A stretch of DNA of 62,903 nucleotides, filler included, from Jimgerdemannia flammicorona (GCA_003990765.1; 2 parts of 2 records of this genome joined end to end with filler, not necessarily neighbours in it), one strand, 5' to 3'. Counted from the whole stretch's first letter, positions 29,467-49,366 are shown. Numbers and translations: made by a program. Notes: a model not told the origin generated them from the sequence alone.

Positions 29467-30048
29467 GGTCTATGATTTACACACACCTTACGCTGAACGC
29501 TCTATAATGAAAGCGTTTTAGGCTGTCCTCCCAATTGTCTTGTAATAATGCACGAAGGATTATCCTTCCGTTTCGTTTATTGATCGTTGCCTAATAGATA
29601 ACAAGCCCGTTCGCATTGAGGCATCCATACCAAGATGTTTTCTACACAAAAAATTAACAAGACATTGCACCGTCTGTGCCATTCGAGCAAAGGCGATGGG
29701 CAGGTGCAGGAGGTGCTCGAGTTCGCCCACGGCTGGAGAAGCGTGCGGAAGGAAATACAAAGAAGGAAGCGGGGACGGCGTAAGCCGAGGTTCCGTTGGA
29801 GGACTGGTGAGGGGTTAGGATGGCGCAGTGTAGCACTAGAAAATAAAGTTGCTCTTTTCGCGGCGAGTGTATTGGTGAATAGTCCATGCTTCAAGGACCA
29901 ATTTATCGTGCTTGAATTTGACCTTTCTCTATTTCGGCTCACAAACCACTATACAACTAGTTAGTTGAACCTTTGCCCAATGCAGTGATTACATACTCTT
30001 ACTGAAAAGATTTTCTAAGTCATCGGGGTCTTGCGGCGGAGTGAAATG

Positions 30049-31392
30049 AGCCTTTTTCCTTATATAGTAGGGAAACTAATCCCAAGGAACCATTGCCAAT
30101 CCAGCTGCCTCCTTCAGAACAAAGTTGGCCATCTCCACCAACCAGCCTCCAAACTCTGCCTGGAACTCCTTCCAGAATTCCCTGGGCAACCCATCCTCTC
30201 CAGGCAATGAACCAGTCTGTGTCTTCCTCAATATCTCCAATACTTCATCCAAAGACACCTCACCCATCACTGCCTCCCCTATCTCAGGTAATGCCATCAC
30301 TGGCCAATTGTTCACCACATTGTCATGAACCTCCCAAAGCACCACATCCTCAGCATACTCCTCTCCATCCTCCCAGAGAGCCTTTTATTGTCCTGAGACC
30401 TCTTCCAACATATCAGCAATCTCTGAGACCTCTACTCTATCTTTATACAACACTGAGGCCCAGCTATATCATACCCTTCTGGGCTTCAAAATACCAGATA
30501 GATATTTAGTTGGCCTCTCTTCTTCCTCCAACTGCCTAGCCTACAGCCTGGCCAGCAGGCCATCTACTCTGCCCTGTCCTCAGCTGCCTTTAAATCTGCC
30601 TGCAAATCTACCACCTCCACTGCTAACTAGTGGCATATCTCTCCAGACAAGTTCCCCTCTTCTATTAGCTTCAATCACCATTGTAGGCCCTTCTCTACCC
30701 TCCTTTCTTTGTCTTTCTGCTCCTTTCCAGCCACCTCTAGAATATCATGCTAGTAGGCATCTGCCAAATATTTAAATTTACTTCACTATTCTACTATCAA
30801 CTGCCCATCATTCTGCCATTGTACTACTTCCTGTCTCACAATAGCTACAAACTGTTCCTTCTCATTCTTCCTCCTGAGTAGAGCCATATTAAGGCACCAG
30901 CACTCTCCACTACTGTCTGCTGCTTGAAATCTACCATACACCTCTACTCTCCAATAATCTGACCAAGGATACCAACATACCTCTACAATATCCAATACAT
31001 TGCCTCAATACTTAGCTACTAGTACCCAATCAATTCATATTCCAATCAATCCTCCACTGACCAGGTGCCATCAAGTGAAAGATCCTGACTTATCTCTCTA
31101 ATGCTAATGAACACCATCTATCAGTCTCATATCACACTCTACCTGAAGCCACTGAGACAGTCCAGAGGACACTGCTACTCCTGCTCCACTATCTGACCTA
31201 TCCAGTGTCTGATTACATACCATATTGAAGTTCCCTCACCGAATGTCCAGTACAACCACCCTCCAACTCTCCCAAGCCTACCAGCTCTCAACCTATTGCT
31301 TTTACTCTCTGCCAACTGCAGGGAGATAAACCAAGCCTACTGCCAAACCATCACCTGCCCCTCCTCTTGGTCTTCCCTACACCAATCTGTCA
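30049..31392 (-). mobile_element. Family B LINE internal fragment (endonuclease to start of RT)
   Basis: Reverse complement is colinear with ~22660-23995 (NFNMV, WYPWSDYW, LPGEDGLPREFWKEF, GLVSLLYK). Confidence 0.88.
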
Positions 31393-31409
31393 CTTTTTTT
31401 TTTTTTTTT

Positions 31410-31509
31410 NNNNNNNNNNNNNNNNNNNNNNNNNNNNNNNNNNNNNNNNNNNNTTAATTAATTAANNNNNNNNNNNNNNNNNNNNNNNNNNNNNNNNNNN
31501 NNNNNNNNN
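31410..31509. other. Artificial scaffold linker (44 N + TTAATTAATTAA + 44 N)
   Basis: Exactly 100 bp with a palindromic six-frame stop 12-mer at 31454-31465. Confidence 0.95.
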
Positions 31510-31651
31510 AGAGAGAGATACTCTGGAGATCTGAGATATAGAGGTGAGATAGGCTTCTCTTAGGTGACTCATTGGTGGTAGAATTCAACATCAGTACTAA
31601 TATAAAGTATTAGCAAGATGTGAGATAGGATTTATAATCTATAGACTAATA

Positions 31652-33266
31652 CAGTGATGAGCAAAAGGATAACAATGTTTTGAAAATTTTACTTTTATAA
31701 ATAATATCTCTATAAATAATTAATATAATGAAATGTAACTTATATTTTCCAAAAGCTCTTGCTTTTCTTTATCATTGGTTAAAATATCATTTTGATACCA
31801 TTATTATTTAGCTTGCTATAAATTTTTACATTAATACTATATATTATTATTCTTTTGGTTTTTCCACTGCCATTTTTGCTATTTTAATATTTCACATAAC
31901 CTCCTTTGGCCTTGTACACAGCAGCAATGCATCTTGGCATGCTCTCAATTAGGTCAATATATTTTTCGGTCGATATGCCTTCCCATTTATGCTCTATATA
32001 TTCCCAAAGCTCTTGCATTCCTTTGGGTGATTCATCATACACATTGAGCAGTTGTTTGAGATGTCTCTAAAGATGTTCAATTGGATTAAGATCAGGAGAC
32101 TGTGCTGGCTAATCTAGCAAACAGATGGAATTGTTCTTGAACCAGTTGTGTGCCATCTTCGATGTATGTTTTGGATCATTATCTTATTGAAATATCACCT
32201 TCTTTTTGTCTATTCTAAAGAATTTAATAGATTCCTTTAATTTATCTTCAAGGATTTCTATATATAGCTCCAAATTCATACACCCATCGATTCTGCATAT
32301 ATATTCAATACTATAGTAACTCATACATCCCCAAATCATAATCGATCCACTATCAAATTTTAATGTCAGAGTTACATGATATTGCTCAAGCTGTGCCCCA
32401 GGCCTCTTCCATGCCCATTCTCATCTATCTGACCCCAAACAGTTGACTTTTGTTTTGTCCAAGAATATCACCCATTTCCAGTCATCTATGGTCCAGTCCT
32501 TGTATTTTTGTGCAAATTCATACCATGATTTGATATGGTGTAGCAACAATAACAGCTTTTTCTGCTTCATGAATGACTTCAAACCAGTACCTTTTAATGT
32601 TCAATGTACTGTGGTTGTACTCACACTGGCTTGGCCCTCTTCTTGAAGTATTTTTGTGATATTTGCAGTAATTTCAACCTTGCCACTGGACACCTGGTGG
32701 ACAATCCATGATCTATCTTGAGTAGATAACTTTGGTGGACAACTGCCTTTTGATATATTTGCATCATCACAATACTCATTTCAGATATGGCTAATCAAAG
32801 TAATGCTTATGCTGATTGCTTTGGCAATCTTTTTTGCTAACTGTCCAGAATTTAACCTATTGATGATAGTGTCATGAATCTCAATAGATAGCTTCTGCAT
32901 TTTGTATAAGAAATGAATATTGGTATGAATTTTTACACCATTTTTACACCAAGAATGACATCAAGAATGATACCAAGAATGATGCTATATATTGCAGCTG
33001 TATAAAAGGTTGAGCGGGTTATGTGAAATATTAAAATAGCAAAAATGGCAGTGGAAAAGCCAAAAGGGTAACAATATATAGTATTAATATAAAAATTTAT
33101 TGCAAGCTAAATAATAATGGTATCAAAATGATATTTTAACCAATGGTAAAGAAAAGCAAGAGCTTTTGGAAAATGTAAGTTACATTTCATTATATTAATT
33201 ATTTATAGAGATATTATTTATAAAAGTAAAATTTTCAAAACATTGTTACCCTTTTGCTCACCACTG
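31652..33266 (-). mobile_element. Tc1/mariner DNA transposon, complete, 1615 bp
   Basis: TA|CAGTG...CACTG|TA ends. TIRs of 250 bp (31652-31901 and 33017-33266) with 10 mismatches. Internal transposase. Confidence 0.97.
31884..32900 (-). pseudogene. Tc1-family DD34E transposase with in-frame stops and no frameshift
   Basis: 339 codons: MQKLSIEIH..WTIDDWKWVIFLDKTK..IMIWGCM..FQ*DNDPKHTSK..PAQSPDLNPIEHL..SMPRCIAAVYKAKGGYVKY*. Confidence 0.95.
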
Positions 33267-34317
33267 TAGTTAGCCAGTATTGGTGAGAAGTAGAATTGAG
33301 CTAAAATCTGTCCTGGAGTACTGAGTTATAGTGATGACTTTCTCTGAAGTTTTAGATAGTATAATAGTATTTTTTAAGGAGAAATATTATATTGAACTTT
33401 AGGTCTAAATATTTAGTAGAGAATGAGATCTTTAAGTATAAAGAATATTTCAGTATAAATAGAAGAGAGAAGTAGTATAAATTCTAAAACATTGGTTGAG
33501 AGAGTATGAGATACTTAATGTCTTCTGAGAGTTATCTTCAGATATGGTATCAGAAAGATGAGGGTAAAAGAAGATGTGATGACCTGAGAGTGAGGCTAAT
33601 AGAGAGTATTGATAATTAGTAACTTATAATTGAATAGATATTGGTAATATGAGTGAGGTTGGCTAGATACTGATAATATATACTTGAGAATAGGTAGTGA
33701 ATATTATTAGAAGAGAGGGTAGCAAGGTAAAAGAAGTTAATAGTGGATATTCTATCTAGTTAGTAGAGGGATGAGATTCTCAGAAGAGTTACTATAGATG
33801 ACTAGTGGAAGAAATATATGAGAGAAGTAGTGAGAGGATTGCAGTAATTTATGACTTAGTAGTATTTCAGAGAAAGAGAGTGAAAGAGTAGGTAAGTATT
33901 GAGATAAGGTAGGGAAGAGTTGAGATATAGTTACTGATATAGTATGAAAACTATATATATATTATAGATTAGTTAATAAAGGAGTCTAGCACTTAATGAG
34001 AAAAAAAAAAAAAAAAAGACTAAAGAAAAGATATGAAAATATACATACTATAACTAAAAAATTATTATAGTTGAGTTCATCTTAAGTTCCACTTTAGTCT
34101 TCTCTATATTCATATCATTACTGTTAAAAATTCTATATCTCCTTACTATAAAGATCTAATTACACATCTATCACTATATTATAATTATTATAAGAAATAT
34201 TACAACTGATCCAACTCATAGAGATATATCAACAATAGCTCTAAGTTCATATAAGATAGAAGTCAGAAGCAATAGATGCTCATCTGAATCTACAAGAAGA
34301 ACAGAGTTACCTTCCAT

Positions 34318-35110
34318 GAGAACCAAGTGGGAGGCCCCTTCATCTCTTTGTCTACTCTCTAGATCCTGGACTTTGCACATTCTTAACCTGATGAGTAATA
34401 AAATTTTTGATAAATAATGTTAATGCTCTTTTGTCTTAGGTATTCATCTACACATGGCGCTGGCTATATCAGCAACCAAGATGCTCGGAAGCTCATCCGT
34501 CTCTGCCTACAACCTGACAATCTCATCTCCCGGACTACTCAGGCTCGCTTGCATGCTCAGGCTCGCTCATGTAAGAAAGGCCTCACCAACCCGCGCTCAT
34601 ATGTGTCAGGCTCAGACCTGCATCTGACAGCGGATTCGCAACCTCATCAATGAGTGCTATTGCAGGGTATTTGCTTTTATCAATATAATATTTACCTTTC
34701 CAATACTTCCCAAAACTGATTTCGTAAATTCAAGACAGCACTTTGGCTCGTCCGTACCTTTGACATGGTCATCATCCCACCATTCAACAGTGGCCAGATG
34801 GCCCAGAGGCGACACCGCAAGATCAACAAGACAGTGGGCAAATGATGACATGGGCACACGGAAGATTTCGCGAGAGGCTGATTTCGAAAGCAGAAGAGTT
34901 CGGGGAAAAGATCAAATTGGTTGATGAGGCATATACGAGTAAAACATGCAGTCGCTGTGGGTGGATGCACCAGATGCTGGGAGGGCGGAAGGTTTTCAGG
35001 TGTGGAGGGATGTGAATGGCGCTCGGGGGATCTCCCTTTGGGCTTTGCTGGAAAGAATTAGGCAGTTGGCTAGTAATGGCCAACAGTGTCTATCTAAGCC
35101 ATCCGAGTGA
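34318..35110 (+). pseudogene. Intron-containing Fanzor (IS607 TnpB/Fanzor2-like RNA-guided endonuclease), C-terminal RuvC half
   Basis: ENQ..SLDPGLCTFLT[intron 34391-34439]WYSSTHG..RKLIRLC..QRIRNLINECYCR[intron 34667-34734]TALWLVRTFDMVIIPPF..MMTWAHGRFRERLISKAEEFG..VDEAYTSKTCSRCGW..LGGRKVFRCG..RDVNGARGI. Contains frameshifts, one stop and a small zinc-finger deletion. Confidence 0.88.
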
Positions 35111-35135
35111 TGTAGACTTCATATGAAATGTCGAG
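35020..35135 (+). ncRNA. Putative Fanzor omega-RNA scaffold / element right end
   Basis: Overlaps the ORF 3' end. Hairpin GUUGGCUA-GUAA-UGGCCAAC (35065-35084), stem GUCUA/UAGAC (35088-35117), palindrome TTCATATGAA (35118-35127), then ATGTCG. Confidence 0.5.
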
Positions 35136-35970
35136 GCGATTAAAAAGTGACTTAGGAGTATTATAAAACTAATAACCAAGCCCCTTCATTTGTTTTTAGC
35201 ATAGAGAAAGAAAAAAAATGTAAAAGAGAGAATCTCCAGAAAATTGGCTCGCTTTCAGGATGCTTAGTACCAAAGACCTATGATCGCAGTCAAAGGGTTT
35301 CACCATTGTCGCGAGTTTTTGGAGAGTGTGATACATACCATACATTTGCGAATTGCATAATCTCACGCCCTTAAATTGCATTTCGTTTTTCATTGTGCCA
35401 GATAGGCTGGCTCCACCAATGCTAGTAAATGCTGCAATCCCAAAGAGGTAATCGACTTATCGGAGTCATGAATGCCAACCGATAAGCGTATTGTTCTGTT
35501 ATGTGTCTCAGTTTTGAAACTATGCAGCTATGTAATACCGGCGGATTATAGAGAATTGAACCTCGTTAGTTCAGGTGGTTTATTTGTAAATCGGAGAAGA
35601 TAGAAGGTAGAAAGCAGAGAAAGATATAGCTCTCTTGCGAGAACTATTTGTTTAGCCTCGGTACAGAGAATCGTGGAGTCTCCTATATCTTCCTCTGTGT
35701 AAAAGAAATTATTGAAGAGACATTATGATACAAAATAGTAATAGAGCGGCAATACTAGCCAGCTAGTAAAAGACTACAAAAGACATGTAGCCAAGCTCAA
35801 GAATGACAAAATATGTTCAAGAAACGAGTGTAAATTTCGCACCAATATAGACAAGAGAAAAGGGAAAATACGAAAGCAAAAACAAGCCAAACTAACTCAA
35901 TACTATGTATGAAAGTTTCTATTGTTCAGTCAATTCAGCTATTTACCGACGTATCTAAGACATTCGTACT

Positions 35971-36863
35971 TCACTTCGTCATCATCAAAGCCCTCATCCA
36001 TTTCATACCTACGCGCAGATTCAGCTTATTTTCAAGCGCTTCAACGGAAGTTAGCAACGTCGACCCGAAACCACCGCAGGATGTGAACCAATCCTCGTCC
36101 TTTAAGCGGAAGTTGTGGTGGCAGTTAGTACACACGCGACCTAGATACGAGCCGTCTTCCGTTGGCTCTGCGGTTGCTGGATTCAACAGGGCCATTCCAG
36201 ACGAGCACTCTGCGCAGAAGAGCTTGCCGCACACGCGGCAATGGTGTCTCCTCCGCGTGAAGGTGAACAGTTTGAAACAGAAGTTGCAGTTTTTGGAGGA
36301 TTTGTCCGACTACATTGCGGGGAATGTAAGTTTGAGTGTTCACAATGCAACAACAAACAAAGGGCGTTAACGGCTTTGATATGCCTACCTCCCAATGGTC
36401 TCTCTTTACCACAGGCGCGGAGGTCGCTGAAAGCCGTCCGTTCATTTTTGACTGCCACCAAGACCAAAGTTTTGTGGTAGCGTTTTTTGGCTCTCCATTT
36501 GTCAGATTCACGGGATCCAGGGAATCCGACCCAACCAAAACAGTCTCATCGCATCCTTTAGCTATTTCTTGGATCTTTTCAACTTCAGCACTCTGAGAGT
36601 GCACGGGAATGCTTTCGGCAACGCCTGCAGTTGTCACCATGGGTATCCTGCCATGCTGCGACGTCCTATTGAGTTGCCTCGAGTACGGGAGAGGTGCACG
36701 AGGCTCTTGCTGAAGGGCCTCTGTGAGCAAAGAAGATGGCTGTCTCTTATACTCTCCGCGGTAAGTGGTTTGGTAGATGAATACCGGGAGCTTCTCGAAC
36801 ATTATGTCATAGCAATCATCCTCTGAGTCACCGCCGTCATTCTCGAATTCATCATCGTAATCT

Positions 36864-36907
<44 letters not shown>

Positions 36908-37390
36908 CAATTCATCATCCACCTGTGTCCGATCTTCCAACGAGCTTGGACCAATAACGAACGATGATCCGTCCTTATCGCAATATGCTTGCTGCTTGTC
37001 TCTCTCCTCTTCGGTGTCCGTGGGCCTTTGCTTATCATATTCGTCCTCAATGTACCCGCTGTCGTATCGCTTCAACTCAGGCATGTCGGCGCTGAGCGGC
37101 CACGAGGTACGGTAGGCATGTTTTACTTTTGGAGAAAAGGAATGCTGGCACTGCACATCGTTACTGCCATCGACCGCCGTGGGACTCAGAGAGGGGCAGG
37201 ATTTGTTGCCGCGACTGTATCGAAGCTTGATATTCATGAGGTGCTCCTTGGCATCGTTGTTGGAGGCGCCGTACCCGGAGTCAGTGGAGACACCAGAACA
37301 TTTGGAATTGCTCGTGTGGTCATTGCCAAAGATGAGGGAGCACGAGGGCGTCGGTGGGATGAAGAACCCAGTTAAAGTGTTTGCGTCCAT
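35971..37390 (-). CDS. FYVE zinc-finger domain protein (2 exons: 37390-36389, 36309-35971)
   Basis: Splicing out GTAGGC..TAG gives WESD..CNFC..FTFTRRRHHCRVCGKLFCAEC..RVCTNC, the canonical WxxD/RRHHCR/RVC motifs. The N-terminus is acidic and disordered; the start codon is uncertain. Confidence 0.88.
36864..36907 (-). repeat. (GAC)n microsatellite encoding poly-Asp
   Basis: (TCG)n on the plus strand inside FYVE gene exon 1. Confidence 0.9.
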
Positions 37391-39159
37391 GGTTTTTAGC
37401 AGTTGAAAGTGGCGGGGAATTAGAGCGATGAATTTATAGGACGTCGGGAAATACCCGAGTGTCGTCTCGCTGTGGGAAAAATCACCTCGGAAATTTGTCA
37501 ATGAGGACTGTCAATCCTGTTCAAGGAAGTATGCCAACTGTTATTGTTACTACTAAAAGGGTCTGGACCAATGCAAACGACTTCGCTGAGCAGATTGTAA
37601 ATGCAGCAGAGCTTTTATAGGCGGTGGTTGGGTGCACACGCCAAGCGTGTGGCAATATGTGTAAGGAAAGACGATGCACACAATTGCAAAGGATCCACGG
37701 GCTACGAGAACTTATTTTCAAGGGCGGCTGTGGGGTCTGACACTAGCTATCGATATATGCAAGCAGGCTGATAAGGGGGGATTCTAGGTTCTAGGTCCTT
37801 TGTGTGTCGCGTGTTTACGACTCCTTTCTGTGAGATGCAAGATGATGGATTGCTCCCATGCTAAATGCCAATCACAAAGTCCATCTGAATGTAATGAATG
37901 CGCTCAGCTGACACCCTGTGCTTCTATATTACAATCTTGGGAGTCGTTGTGTGTGTGCTTGTGCGAAATACGATAGCAGCTTTGTTCGCTTCAAAACCAT
38001 ATATATGAAGTGCCGGAATAGGACGTTGTGGACAGGATGTGGTATAAAATGTGATCTATGGCTTTAATGTCATTTCCCAAAATATGTCGTTCACTTGAAC
38101 CACCAAAAGATTGTTCAGAATATCCCGACCTTGTCCAGTTGTTGAAAACAAAGTTTTTTTTAAATGAAGAGCTGGGTTTCATGGATAATACATGAAAAAA
38201 CAGGTGTTTAATCGTAATGTTGTATTCGCAACTCAAAATGCTCTCCGGCCAGTATTATCCGGTCAGTTAAGAAGGGACTCTAGAAGGGGGAGTCAAACAG
38301 TCAAACACCTCATATTAGGTACCACCCTTCAACTGGCCTAGATGCCTAGAATGGAACTCCGATGCATCAGTGCGACCTTACATTTCGTGGCTGGAAGAGT
38401 TTGGGTGGCGGCACGTGCTTGAACCTAACTGCGCGAACGATCCCAACTCGCGTCGCCCACCTTGTTGACATCGCAGCCCTAAAATGGCGCCCACGGCTCA
38501 CCTATCTGCGTTGTGCTATTGCGTTCAAGAGATTGCGAATTCCACGCCCGTCTGTCAAGTACAGGTATAATCAAAGACCCAGTGTCAGGACGTCAGCGAA
38601 GTCATTTTTAGGTCGTGGTTCTGTTCCGATGAACGGACCTTTCTGCATTGGAAAGCTGATCATATAATTAATACTTTCTATTTTATTTTATTTTTTACAG
38701 CCATATCTCTAAAAATATTTGTTTATCTTCCAAAATAAATTTTATAGGGTTTTGTTTATTTTATTATTATCTAAATTTTTGTCTTTTAGAGCAGTTGGAA
38801 AAATAATTATTAATGGCTAAACTTTTACTAAATCTTGTCATTAAATATTAATTTTACATACTAGTAATATTTTAAAAAGAGTATTTATTTTATTTTGATA
38901 ATAATAACATAGTCAAACAAAAAACAAAAAACCTTCTTTTGGTATACATTTACCAATATAATATGGGATATCTGGATCATGATATAAACCCTATTAAATC
39001 TAATATCTTAAAGATATTATATACATATCCATTCCAACCAATATGCCCAATCTATTAAAATTAAAATAAAAAGTTAGATTTGGAGAAGTTAACAGCTTGG
39101 TCATAAAGAAACAATAAAACAGAATAAAATAATCATTCACTCAAGACCGGCCATCTTGA

Positions 39160-47401: not shown

Positions 47402-49366
47402 TTAAGGGAAATCACAAACAATGGAAGTCCCGCTGGTCTTGCACACAGTGCTAGGCCCGCAGTTGTTCGTGGACCAACTACTATTCACGCACTGCTTGTA
47501 CGCGGTGGACGAACCAGAGGAGACGCAGATCATCTGACCGTTGTTGGAACTACCGCAAGCGGGTTTGTCGGTCGGGCCACTTCCAGCAGCAGAGGTCGTG
47601 CTGGTAGTGGTCTTGACCCTCGAGGATCTAATTTTGATGGCGGAAGGGGGTGTGGTTTTGACGACGGAAGAGGATGTGGTTTTGACGGTGGAAGTCGTGG
47701 CCTTGCCGGCGGAAGCGGAATTCGTGGTCTTGGATGGCTTGGCTGTACCAGTTGGGTTCACTCCTGCTGAGCAGGTAGCCTGCGGGGCGGGGTCGAAGAT
47801 ACCCTGGATAGCTGGCAAAAGTTCGCCATTGTCCTGCGAGATCTCCCACACCATGGCACCGAGAACGTCACTGCAGCGGAGGTAATCGACCTTGTACTTG
47901 AGAGAGCGTGGATCGTCGTACGAAAGGTAGACGTTCTTGTCTGCCCTCCACAGCCAGTTAGTGTAAGTACTGGCGTCCCAGTGCTGTTGCCACGGGGAGG
48001 CAGCCTTGGTGGTGGAAGTCAAGACGCCTTCCGAACGCAAGTTCTTCCACTTCCAGACGCCCGAGTAGTGTTTGTAAGCGGGGCCGTCACAGGAATCGGG
48101 GTCCAAGGCGTCGTCGCTGTCGCCAATGGGCGGATTGTTCTGGACTTGGCCAACGTACTGGTCGTTGTTGGCAAGGCTGGCCATCGATGAGGTGGTCGTC
48201 GTTGAACGGGCATAGAAAGGCAGACCCATTACAAGCTTATTAGCAGGGACGCCGAGCTTGATCCAGCGCTCGACGGCCTCGATCAAGCCGAACTTGAAAG
48301 AGGCCTGAGTGTTAGCACCGGGAGCGGTAAGTGGAGCGTTGGGGCCAGTGAAGGTGTTCCAAGGGCCGGAGAAATCGTACGACATGACATTCACCCAGTC
48401 AAGGGCGTCCGCTAGGCCATCCATGGTGCACTGCTGCACGGCCCACTGGGCCGAGAGGTCGCGGCAGTTCCAGATCGCCTGCTTGATACCACCGAGATGT
48501 GCCGCGATGGTGATCTTGACCTTGGAGCCAAGCGTGCTCTTGAGCTTGGAGAGTAGCGAGACGTAGTTGGCATAGTCGGCAGAGGAGGTGTGCGTGCAGG
48601 TCTGGGAGGAATCGGGGATACCAGGGTGCTCCCAACTAAATAATGATGAAATTTTGTAAGCGCAGATCACATTCCCAAAATCAAGATGTCGACCACCATT
48701 ATTTATGAATTTTTCGATACTTACTCAATATCAATACCATCCAATTTATAGGTATTCACCAACTTCTGCACAGCGGCGATGAACTGCTCGCGCTTGCCTC
48801 CAGAGCCGGTATCTGCGGCCATGTCAGAGAAGAAAGTAGACCCGGCCCAACCGCCGATAGATAGGAACACTTTATTTTTTTTTTTATTTTATTTTTTTTA
48901 TAACCAAAAGCAAAGAGATGTCAGCATTGGTACCAGTCTTAATTGGATGTATCAATTTTTCAAAACTCATTAAGAATCTGTACCTTTGGTATCAGCGCCG
49001 TGAGCAGCGGTCACAAGAGCCTGAAGCTTGGGTCCGGGTGTGAGGCTGAGGTTGGTACCGTTGTTGCCGAGGTCGAAGCGGGGAAGATGATCTTGGCGTA
49101 GAGTGGCGAAAGCTGTAGAATAAAAAGGTGAGGAGATTTAGTAAATGATTTTGTTTTGGTAGGGTTCGAAAGGAGGTAAGGTCTAGCGTACCGTAGTTGA
49201 CGTGAGTGACTTGGCCGAAGGGGATCTTAGCCGGCTCCATGCTGGTCCAATCTGCGTAATAGATCTGGAGGACCTTGCCATCGGAGCCAACGGCCCTCGC
49301 GGATGCGGAACCGAGTAGGCCAAGGGTGGCCAGAGAGAGAGCGCCCAGTTGAATGATGTTCTTCAT
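47402..49366 (-). CDS. Secreted GH18 chitinase with Ser/Thr linker and C-terminal Cys-rich CBM19-like module (exons 49366-49192, 49112-48984, 48869-48725, 48635-47402)
   Basis: Signal peptide, YYADW, THVNYAFA, SIGGW, spliced catalytic LDGIDIDWEHP (DxxDxDxE), MSYDF, KLVMGLPFY, SYDD, GAMVWE. Three GT-AG introns. Confidence 0.95.

Follow-up and report, generated by a model that had tools for sequence, protein, structure and literature searches.

A dead right half, very probably of an IS607-type Fanzor2 transposon, in an Endogone-related fungus

Layout of the locus

A series of nuclease motifs lies on the plus strand between positions 34027 and 35105 of the window, that is, the whole stretch of DNA analysed here (62,903 nt). 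An earlier note on this DNA had read a Fanzor relic in 34318-35110, and every motif that it listed is present there, on the plus strand and distributed over the three frames. The interval does contain such a relic, but its start is further upstream, at about 34027. The relic thus spans about 1.08 kb and is a single copy within the window. Its features and lesions are collected in Table 1.

The RuvC-I motif contains the D-P-G codons at 34362-34370, the first of which encodes the catalytic Asp. In the RuvC-II region the segment IIPPF places a Pro at the position of the canonical Glu, and an alternative Glu (GAG, 34926-34928) occurs in DEAYTSKTC, six residues before the first CxxC (E-AYTSKT-CSRC, 34926-34958). 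This is the rearranged RuvC-II that the earlier note had described. Of the zinc ribbon, the first CxxC is encoded at 34947-34958 and the third Cys at 35001-35003. The Arg-Asp pair of RuvC-III (AGG GAT, 35006-35011) stands in another frame because of a 22-nt deletion immediately before it.

Table 1. Features and lesions of the relic; lesions and introns were called on a MAFFT DNA alignment with five relatives.
Feature	Position	Strand	Evidence
Hypermutated remnant, 3′ part of the middle exon just before RuvC-I	34027..34334	+	tblastn and transition-tolerant alignment
7-nt deletion	after 34063	+	alignment
In-frame stops in the hypermutated exon remnant	34207, 34219, 34252, 34273, 34285	+	alignment
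Frame-shifting 8-nt insertion, exact border of the hypermutated 5′ and the better-kept 3′ part	34335..34342	+	MAFFT
End of the middle exon with RuvC-I SLDPGLCTFLT	34343..34390	+	Asp codon GAT 34362-34364
Intron at the position conserved in relatives; donor AT instead of GT (G>A at 34391)	34391..34439	+	alignment
Exon piece, helical segment YSSTHG...RLCLQPDNLISR...RIRNLINECYCR	34440..34666	+	profile match hmm 257-304, E=1.6e-5
34-nt partly duplicated insertion	34547-34580	+	alignment
In-frame TGA; relatives have CGC, CGA or CAA	34625-34627	+	alignment
68-nt AT-rich GT...AG insert	34667..34734	+	absent from all five close relatives
RuvC-II region and zinc ribbon (IIPPF, MMTWAHGRF, DEAYTSKTC)	34735..35005	+	Pfam and profile matches
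1-nt deletion, frameshift, in an A run	after 34839	+	alignment
22-nt deletion; fourth zinc-finger Cys removed, frame shifted	after 35005	+	alignment
RuvC-III RDVNGARGI and start of the C-terminal helix	35006..35060	+	profile E=5.4e-4; Asp 35009-35011
32-nt deletion; last codons, stop codon, small hairpin and one arm of the long hairpin gone	after 35060	+	alignment
Remnant of the 3′ non-coding guide-RNA (omega-RNA) region and element right end	35061..35105	+	94% identity to L012/L014 over 35061-35093

The 5′ part was recognized through L012, the closest full-length relative of the relic, which comes from a soil metagenome. The middle exon of L012 (aa 103-188) matches 34078-34335 by tblastn with E=5.9e-16 and 41% identity, and the differences form a string of His-to-Tyr, Trp-to-stop and Pro-to-Ser changes. 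A local alignment tolerant of C-to-T and G-to-A changes pairs L012 1549-1906 with window 34027-34395 at a score of 305, against a maximum of 51 for shuffled sequence. The homology ends at 34027, directly after a poly-A tract at 34000-34017. No match to the N-terminal half of the nuclease was found by tblastn anywhere in the window, nor by the family profile among the 379 ORFs in 26-42 kb, and transition-tolerant alignment of the 5′ part of L012 with the rest of the window on both strands gave scores of 56-73, which is the noise level. The size of an intact element can be taken from L012, in which 146-2668 is 99.5% identical to L014, corresponding to about 2.5 kb with both ends in view; of this length the relic, without a left end, keeps only the last 1.08 kb. 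An element of the Fanzor2 type would be expected to have neither terminal inverted repeats nor a target-site duplication.

The earlier note had followed the peptide from frame to frame; several of these changes are true frameshifts, but two are introns. For the first, at 34391-34439, the phase agrees with splicing, since TG at 34389-34390 and G at 34440 together restore a conserved Trp codon, and L012, L014, L013 and L009 carry an intron at the same site. The segment can alternatively be described as 4 extra bases with TGA stops. In the related locus L003 the gene has neither of its two introns, each being cut out precisely at the GT...AG borders; this locus thus represents a spliced form, which shows that the introns are real. 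The second is the 68-nt insert, which judging by its sequence is probably a lineage-specific intron. Its excision joins ECYCR to TALW in frame and gives the same length as ECHKKTALW of the relatives; MAFFT places the insert at 34663-34730, and the position 34667-34734 is the inferred splice-site reading.

The right end is defined by a terminal CCATCCG at 35099-35105. The terminal CCATCC[G/A] occurs in 16 distinct loci (as CCATCCA in L010), and beyond the motif the flanks diverge. An independent soil-metagenome contig of 234 nt, from one soil sequencing run that shares a small part of the words of the stretch, aligns with 34959-35175, where it differs by a single mismatch and by an insertion of 17 nt behind 34982. 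The contig crosses both 3′ deletions, with the same deleted form at each, as well as the junction of element end and flank, and so speaks weakly for real 3′ lesions rather than errors of the assembly. Because of the 17-nt insertion that the contig carries there, the exact sequence around 34982 is uncertain. Parts of the stretch that this run leaves uncovered carry no information. The 1-nt deletion after 34839 could be an assembly error since it falls within an A run. Among the sequencing runs matching the stretch there was no RNA run.

The earlier note had called this copy dead, and the list of losses agrees. On the 5′ side the relic no longer has a recombinase gene, a left end or the N-terminal half of the nuclease, and towards the 3′ end the fourth zinc-finger Cys, the stop codon and roughly half of the guide-RNA scaffold have disappeared. 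What remains of the frame is broken by six in-frame stops, a mutated splice donor and frame-shifting indels of +8, +34, -1 and -22 nt. Preserved are 13 of 14 family-invariant residues including the codons of the D-E-D triad, one conserved intron position and the terminal motif of the right end.

Membership in the TnpB/Fanzor family

The assignment to the TnpB/Fanzor type, proposed in the earlier note from the motifs, holds under profile searches, with matches well outside what chance would give. The open piece, which is an ORF of 83 aa from stop to stop (34764-35015) rather than the 78 aa noted before, scores 50.3 bits (E=2.6e-13; cut-off 26.3) with Pfam PF07282 (Cas12f1-like TNB, formerly OrfB_Zn_ribbon). 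The other five of the six relic pieces scanned against Pfam gave no relevant match. Of 152 relatives retrieved, the 87 with 340 aa or more were taken as full-length and combined into a family profile, which matches four relic pieces in collinear order, with E=1.6e-5, 8.6e-11, 1.7e-33 and 5.4e-4. A search of a library of 1.84 billion proteins returned 2129 proteins at E ≤ 1e-3, with 163 at E ≤ 1e-10. Amino-acid identity to the relatives reaches 79% (78.9% to P0001 over 57 aa).

An alignment of 71 full-length relatives has the invariant columns D315, P316, G317, H431, F434, E455, T458, T461, C462, C465, C480, C483, R489 and D490, and the window keeps every one of them except C483. Measured against the TnpB/Fanzor motif of Bao and Jurka (D..[TS][TS]xx-C4 zinc finger..RD), the RuvC-I Asp and the RuvC-III Arg-Asp are present, as are TSKT, the CxxC and the third Cys. 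The C4 zinc ribbon is incomplete, while the relatives have all four Cys, and the copy is therefore classed as a decayed descendant and not as a working member. The combination of DPG with an alternative Glu is described in passages of PMC10711439 (Yoon et al. 2023) as the fingerprint of Fanzors and of their bacterial "pro-Fanzor" relatives. The published regular expression for this fingerprint fits 2/2, 61/85 and 48/106 of the full-length relatives in three retrieved sets.

Fanzor2 versus Fanzor1

Comparisons of sequence and fold, made on intact relatives and not on the broken copy, support the assignment of the family to the Fanzor2/IS607 type and not to Fanzor1, in line with the subtype favoured in the earlier note. 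In a phmmer search against all PDB chains both P0007 and the L008 ORF have 9b0l_P as best match (E=6.4e-29 and 8.8e-23), followed by TnpB/Cas12f chains at about 1e-11 to 1e-12, and no Fanzor1 chain is found among the 25 matches of P0007 and the 24 of the L008 ORF. The entry 9B0L is the ternary complex of the mimivirus Fanzor2 (ApmFz2), for which passages of PMC11832414 give the triad D324/E467/D501. For the fold, an AlphaFold model of the L008 ORF (mean pLDDT 83.8, pTM 0.79) was compared by Foldseek. For this one relative, represented by a predicted structure, 9b0l_P ranks first (E=8.8e-24, TM 0.66/0.71) and ISDra2 TnpB second (E=1.1e-15). The Fanzor1 of Spizellomyces, SpuFz1 (8gkh_P), is found at rank 46 (E=6.6e-5, TM 0.28/0.24).

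According to passages of PMC3627910, Fanzor2 elements are defined by the architecture of IS607 with its serine recombinase TnpA. In 10 of 11 related loci the nuclease gene is preceded on its own strand by an ORF with a Resolvase domain (PF00239), counted from the 50 of 99 listed upstream ORFs that were scanned, and five of these ten also have a MerR-type HTH. In L008, the eleventh locus, no recombinase was found upstream among the ORFs scanned. The earlier note had asked for an upstream serine recombinase. None was detected among 86 of the 91 ORFs (38 aa or longer) that lie in 28.5-36.1 kb of the window (the other five are relic pieces already scanned against Pfam), but the related loci supply one. 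The association with a recombinase is thus a property of the relatives, and that no such gene was detected in the window is consistent with the loss of the 5′ part. Giant-virus contigs also contain relatives, in 350 confirmed stretches whose best segment is 21-58% identical.

The guide-RNA region and the proposed mechanism

The last ~110 nt of the related elements fold better than shuffled sequence, with z scores of -2.4 to -5.4 in 9 of 11 and of -1.8 and -2.0 in the other two. The relatives share a fold plan in which GGAUGG, within the last codons, pairs with the terminal CCAUCC to form a closing stem. Inside this stem are a small hairpin, which spans the stop codon, and a long hairpin of a sequence that varies between subclades. 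The relic has lost the small hairpin as well as one of the two arms of the long one, and its GGATGG partner of the closing stem is mutated. An omega-RNA scaffold of the Fanzor2 type would also be expected to include a pseudoknot at the 3′ end. RNAalifold on sets of 15 and 10 relatives gave a weak consensus with only the invariant closing stem and short pairs in the coding region, and no usable covariation; to the eye, the two inner hairpins look compensatory. Rfam gave no match at E ≤ 1 in 33000-36000 of the window or in L012, L005 and L010.

The working of an intact element has been outlined in passages of three papers (PMC10711439, PMC10530073, PMC11832414). Mobility depends on the serine recombinase (TnpA). 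Fanzor2, a RuvC nuclease resembling TnpB, binds an omega-RNA transcribed from the stretch that reaches from the 3′ end of the Fanzor2 gene to the right end, and a guide derived from the flank directs it to cut matching DNA beside a short motif. By analogy, the element at this locus would once have been mobile and equipped with an RNA-guided Fanzor2 DNA cutter, and would later have been truncated at its 5′ side and have decayed to an inert right half. The relic can produce neither nuclease nor guide RNA and is inert, because the recombinase, left end, N-terminal half, open frame, zinc ligand and half of the RNA scaffold have all been lost.

Host genome and mutation load

The window contains eukaryotic genes for a GH18 protein, a Myb protein, a glycosyltransferase 49 and a FYVE protein. 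The best match of the GH18 ORF (47402-48724) is a protein of Endogone sp., with 69% identity; proteins of Umbelopsis and Jimgerdemannia come next. Judged by these sequences, the host genome is fungal, as the earlier note had stated, and lies in or near the Endogonales.

The relic sits on the edge of a repeat island that is nearly free of CpG. Observed and expected CpG counts are 28/805 in 6001-27000, 10/131 in 30001-34335 and 1581/1619 in 35106-62903. There is no CpG at all between 33016 and 34457, while in the 3′ part of the relic the ratio of observed to expected is 0.60. The mutation load changes in the same region. With L014 left out as a near-duplicate of L012, G/C has become A/T at 45 of 89 conserved sites in 34066-34335 (reverse changes, 11/111), as against 20 of 177 in 34441-35110 (reverse, 9/164). 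The switch coincides with the 8-nt insertion at 34335-34342. Classic RIP was rejected as the cause in the 5′ part, since the C-to-T changes have no preference for CpA or any other dinucleotide (CpA 19/34, CpC 13/24, CpG 5/8, CpT 8/23).

Alternative explanations

The interval 34027-35105 on the plus strand is very probably the decayed, 5′-truncated right half of an IS607-type transposon with a Fanzor2 gene, resident in an Endogone-related fungus (Mucoromycota). The two introns among the frame changes, the retention of 13 of 14 invariant residues and the position of the 1-nt deletion in a homopolymer could also be read as signs of a living gene, a working intron-containing Fanzor2 whose frame changes are all introns or assembly errors. 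Such a gene is scarcely credible in view of the six in-frame stops, the +8, +34 and -22 nt indels that follow no splice-site logic, the missing fourth zinc-finger Cys, stop codon and entire N-terminal half, and the soil contig with the same deleted form at both 3′ deletions. A different carrier could be sought in the neighbourhood, where a Tc1/mariner relic with weak HTH hints (31646-33273) lies 750 nt upstream on the opposite strand; passages of PMC3627910 and PMC10530073 link Fanzor1 with Mariner/Tc1 elements, and the piece might accordingly be a Fanzor1 carried by this transposon. However, the Tc1/mariner relic is closed by its own inverted repeats of 284 nt (31646-31928 and 32991-33273, 93% alike) and is therefore a separate element with the Fanzor piece outside. 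The serine recombinase of the relatives and the Fanzor1 structures, which rank 46 and lower and do not appear among the sequence matches, likewise speak against Fanzor1 cargo, which is most improbable. An equally slight chance attaches to a prokaryotic IS607 TnpB, present through bacterial contamination or a very recent transfer and not as a resident eukaryotic element. TnpBs of Ca. Uabimicrobium and Limnothrix do reach 34-37% identity over 77% and 100% of the query, and passages of PMC10711439 report that Fanzor2 clusters with cyanobacterial IS607 TnpBs, but the spliceosomal-type intron at a position common to the relatives, with a spliced form in existence, is foreign to this reading, the flanking genes are fungal, and among named organisms the nearest relatives, at 47-68% identity, belong to Glomeromycotina and to a chytrid.

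Within the reading as a decayed Fanzor2 element, the history of the two halves can be told in more than one way. The sharp change in load at 34335 is unlike simple decay in place; it could reflect the edge of a chromatin domain, two copies joined together or a chimeric assembly. In the case of a join, an old hypermutated 5′ piece would have met a younger 3′ piece at 34335-34342 through recombination, gene conversion or assembly chimerism. The fall in mutated conserved G/C sites from 45/89 to 20/177, the passage from no CpG (33016-34457) to an observed/expected ratio of 0.60 and the coincidence of the switch with the 8-nt insertion would suit it. Both parts are, however, collinear with single relatives across the junction, and the same pattern could arise at the edge of a methylated or heterochromatic domain, so a join is unlikely, if with an appreciable chance of being right. 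It is also conceivable, though quite doubtful, that a targeted C-to-T hypermutation of repeats, RIP-like or driven by a deaminase, killed this one IS607-Fanzor2 copy in an Endogone-like Mucoromycota fungus. If true, the hypermutation would be a form of genome defence so far undescribed in these fungi. Its basis would be the loss of CpG from the 5′ part and the 4 kb upstream, the change of half of the conserved G/C positions in that part without dinucleotide preference, and a 3′ part, 100 nt further on, that is nearly spared. It is likewise conceivable but doubtful that the Fanzor2 family is still transcribed and spliced in soil fungi (locus L003). For how the host genome inactivates repeats, the difference in mutation load between the two parts of the relic offers a marker dated by homology.

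Relation to known systems

Among solved structures the mimivirus ApmFz2 (Acanthamoeba polyphaga mimivirus, protein L79, PDB 9B0L, from an IS607-type element) is the best match of the intact relatives by sequence and, for the L008 model, by fold. The present family shares with it the D-E-D triad in which the Glu has shifted to a place immediately before the zinc finger, as passages on ApmFz2 describe, the serine recombinase partner seen in the relatives of the relic and, again in the relatives, a 3′ RNA region, predicted to be structured, that ends at the right end of the element. In contrast to ApmFz2, the fungal lineage has spliceosomal introns in both genes (recombinase and nuclease), the L008 model is only 18% identical in the structural alignment, and the copy in the window is broken and truncated. 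Prokaryotic IS607 TnpBs ("pro-Fanzor", ISXfa1-like, cyanobacterial) agree with the family in RuvC fingerprint and in the kind of recombinase partner according to passages of PMC10711439, and the bacterial matches reach 34-37% identity. They differ in residing in bacterial hosts and in having no introns, and ISDra2 TnpB is only the second-best structural match. Fanzor1 (SpuFz1, PDB 8GKH) is likewise a eukaryotic descendant of TnpB with DPG and an alternative Glu. It differs in being carried by DDE-type or other eukaryotic transposons and not by IS607, as stated in passages of PMC3627910.

The soil-metagenome elements L012/L014, L003/L013 and L009, together with annotated hypothetical proteins of Paraglomus, Gigaspora, Cetraspora, Diversispora and Rhizophagus and of the chytrid Borealophlyctis, belong to the same family as the relic and have the same exon structure and terminal CCATCC[G/A]. 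The nearest named relatives of the nuclease come from these six genera. Compared with these soil elements and named fungal proteins, the relic has 74% DNA identity over 34732-35013 and protein identity of up to 79%. Unlike the relic, these copies keep the recombinase and the full nuclease, although the recombinase of L012 has a stop.

Fanzor2 in IS607-type elements has been known since 2013 (passages of PMC3627910), and introns and nuclear adaptation of Fanzors have been published (passages of PMC10530073). The earlier note overstated the rarity of such sequences in fungi: the supplement of PMC10711439 lists Glomeromycotina members from Diversispora, Gigaspora and Rhizophagus, and many fungal homologues are present in databases. 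In the literature searched and in one supplement of PMC10530073, which has none of the six host names looked for, no text naming a Fanzor in Endogone-like fungi was found. The literature search also found no paper that combines Fanzor with Glomeromycotina. The relic is an ordinary dead copy of a kind already known, and it matters little by itself since it cannot act. Its presence does show that intron-bearing Fanzor2 elements of the IS607 type found their way into the Endogone lineage. Through the relic, relatives that are intact or nearly so were found in soil data; their compact nucleases of ~430-500 aa each go with a recombinase, a right end that is defined and a 3′ RNA predicted to be structured, and these are better starting points for new eukaryote-adapted RNA-guided nucleases.

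Hypermutation and CpG loss

The relic, a dead, 5′-truncated IS607-type Fanzor2 copy, carries two very different mutation loads. Measured at G/C sites conserved in the aligned relatives, its 5′ part (34066-34335) has undergone GC-to-AT change at 45 of 89, and its 3′ part (34441-35110) at 20 of 177. The GC-to-AT hypermutation is confined to the 5′ part and displays no dinucleotide preference. The switch in mutation load coincides with an 8-nt insertion at 34335-34342.

CpG is almost absent from the repeat islands of the window, with 28 observed against 805 expected at 6001-27000 and 10 against 131 at 30001-34335, and a complete lack of CpG across 33016-34457. GpC, unlike CpG, is not depleted in these islands, and in the gene-rich half (35106-62903) the CpG content is normal (1581 observed, 1619 expected). 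Together these counts suggest that CpG methylation and deamination are restricted to repeats.

Borders and flanks of the relic

The relic occupies the gap that separates the repeat island from a FYVE zinc-finger gene, the end of which lies about 870 nt away. The A-rich tract on its 5′ side could mark a retroposon insertion, of which it would be the tail. A contig from an independent soil-metagenome sequencing run matches the 3′ end of the relic and its flank and has 17 additional bases at 34982 that repeat the neighbouring sequence; the relic locus therefore differs between sources.

Features around the relic
Feature	Window position	Strand	Remarks
Decayed Tc1/mariner-type transposon	31646-33273	-	284-nt terminal inverted repeats
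A-rich tract	34000-34017		Includes a 17-A run; directly 5′ of the end of Fanzor-element homology
FYVE zinc-finger gene	35974-37510	-	Next gene after the relic; PF01363, E=2e-17

The inverted repeats of the Tc1/mariner relic (31646-31928 and 32991-33273) are 93% alike, transitions accounting for 14 of their 18 mismatches. Pfam searches of this element returned weak HTH hints only. Just upstream of it are two runs of 44 N (31410-31453 and 31466-31509), which are assembly gaps or masked stretches.

Organization of related elements

Compared with the intron-bearing nuclease genes of L012, the closest full-length relative of the relic, and L013, the related locus L003 is missing both introns exactly at the GT...AG borders. 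Its sequence continues beyond the right end of the element into the flank, and L003 appears to be a processed copy or a transcript that was spliced and reads through that end.

L012:1-145 is the right end of another family member of the L010/L023 type, including the terminal motif, and the L012 element begins immediately after it, placing the two elements head to tail. The recombinase gene is likewise intron-bearing in L012 and in a further relative, L005. In both loci the long open frame that runs into the nuclease overlaps the second recombinase exon in a different reading frame (L012:723-1220/809-1216; L005:977-1486/1123-1482), and the long N-terminal extensions of database proteins may in part represent read-through of this overlap.
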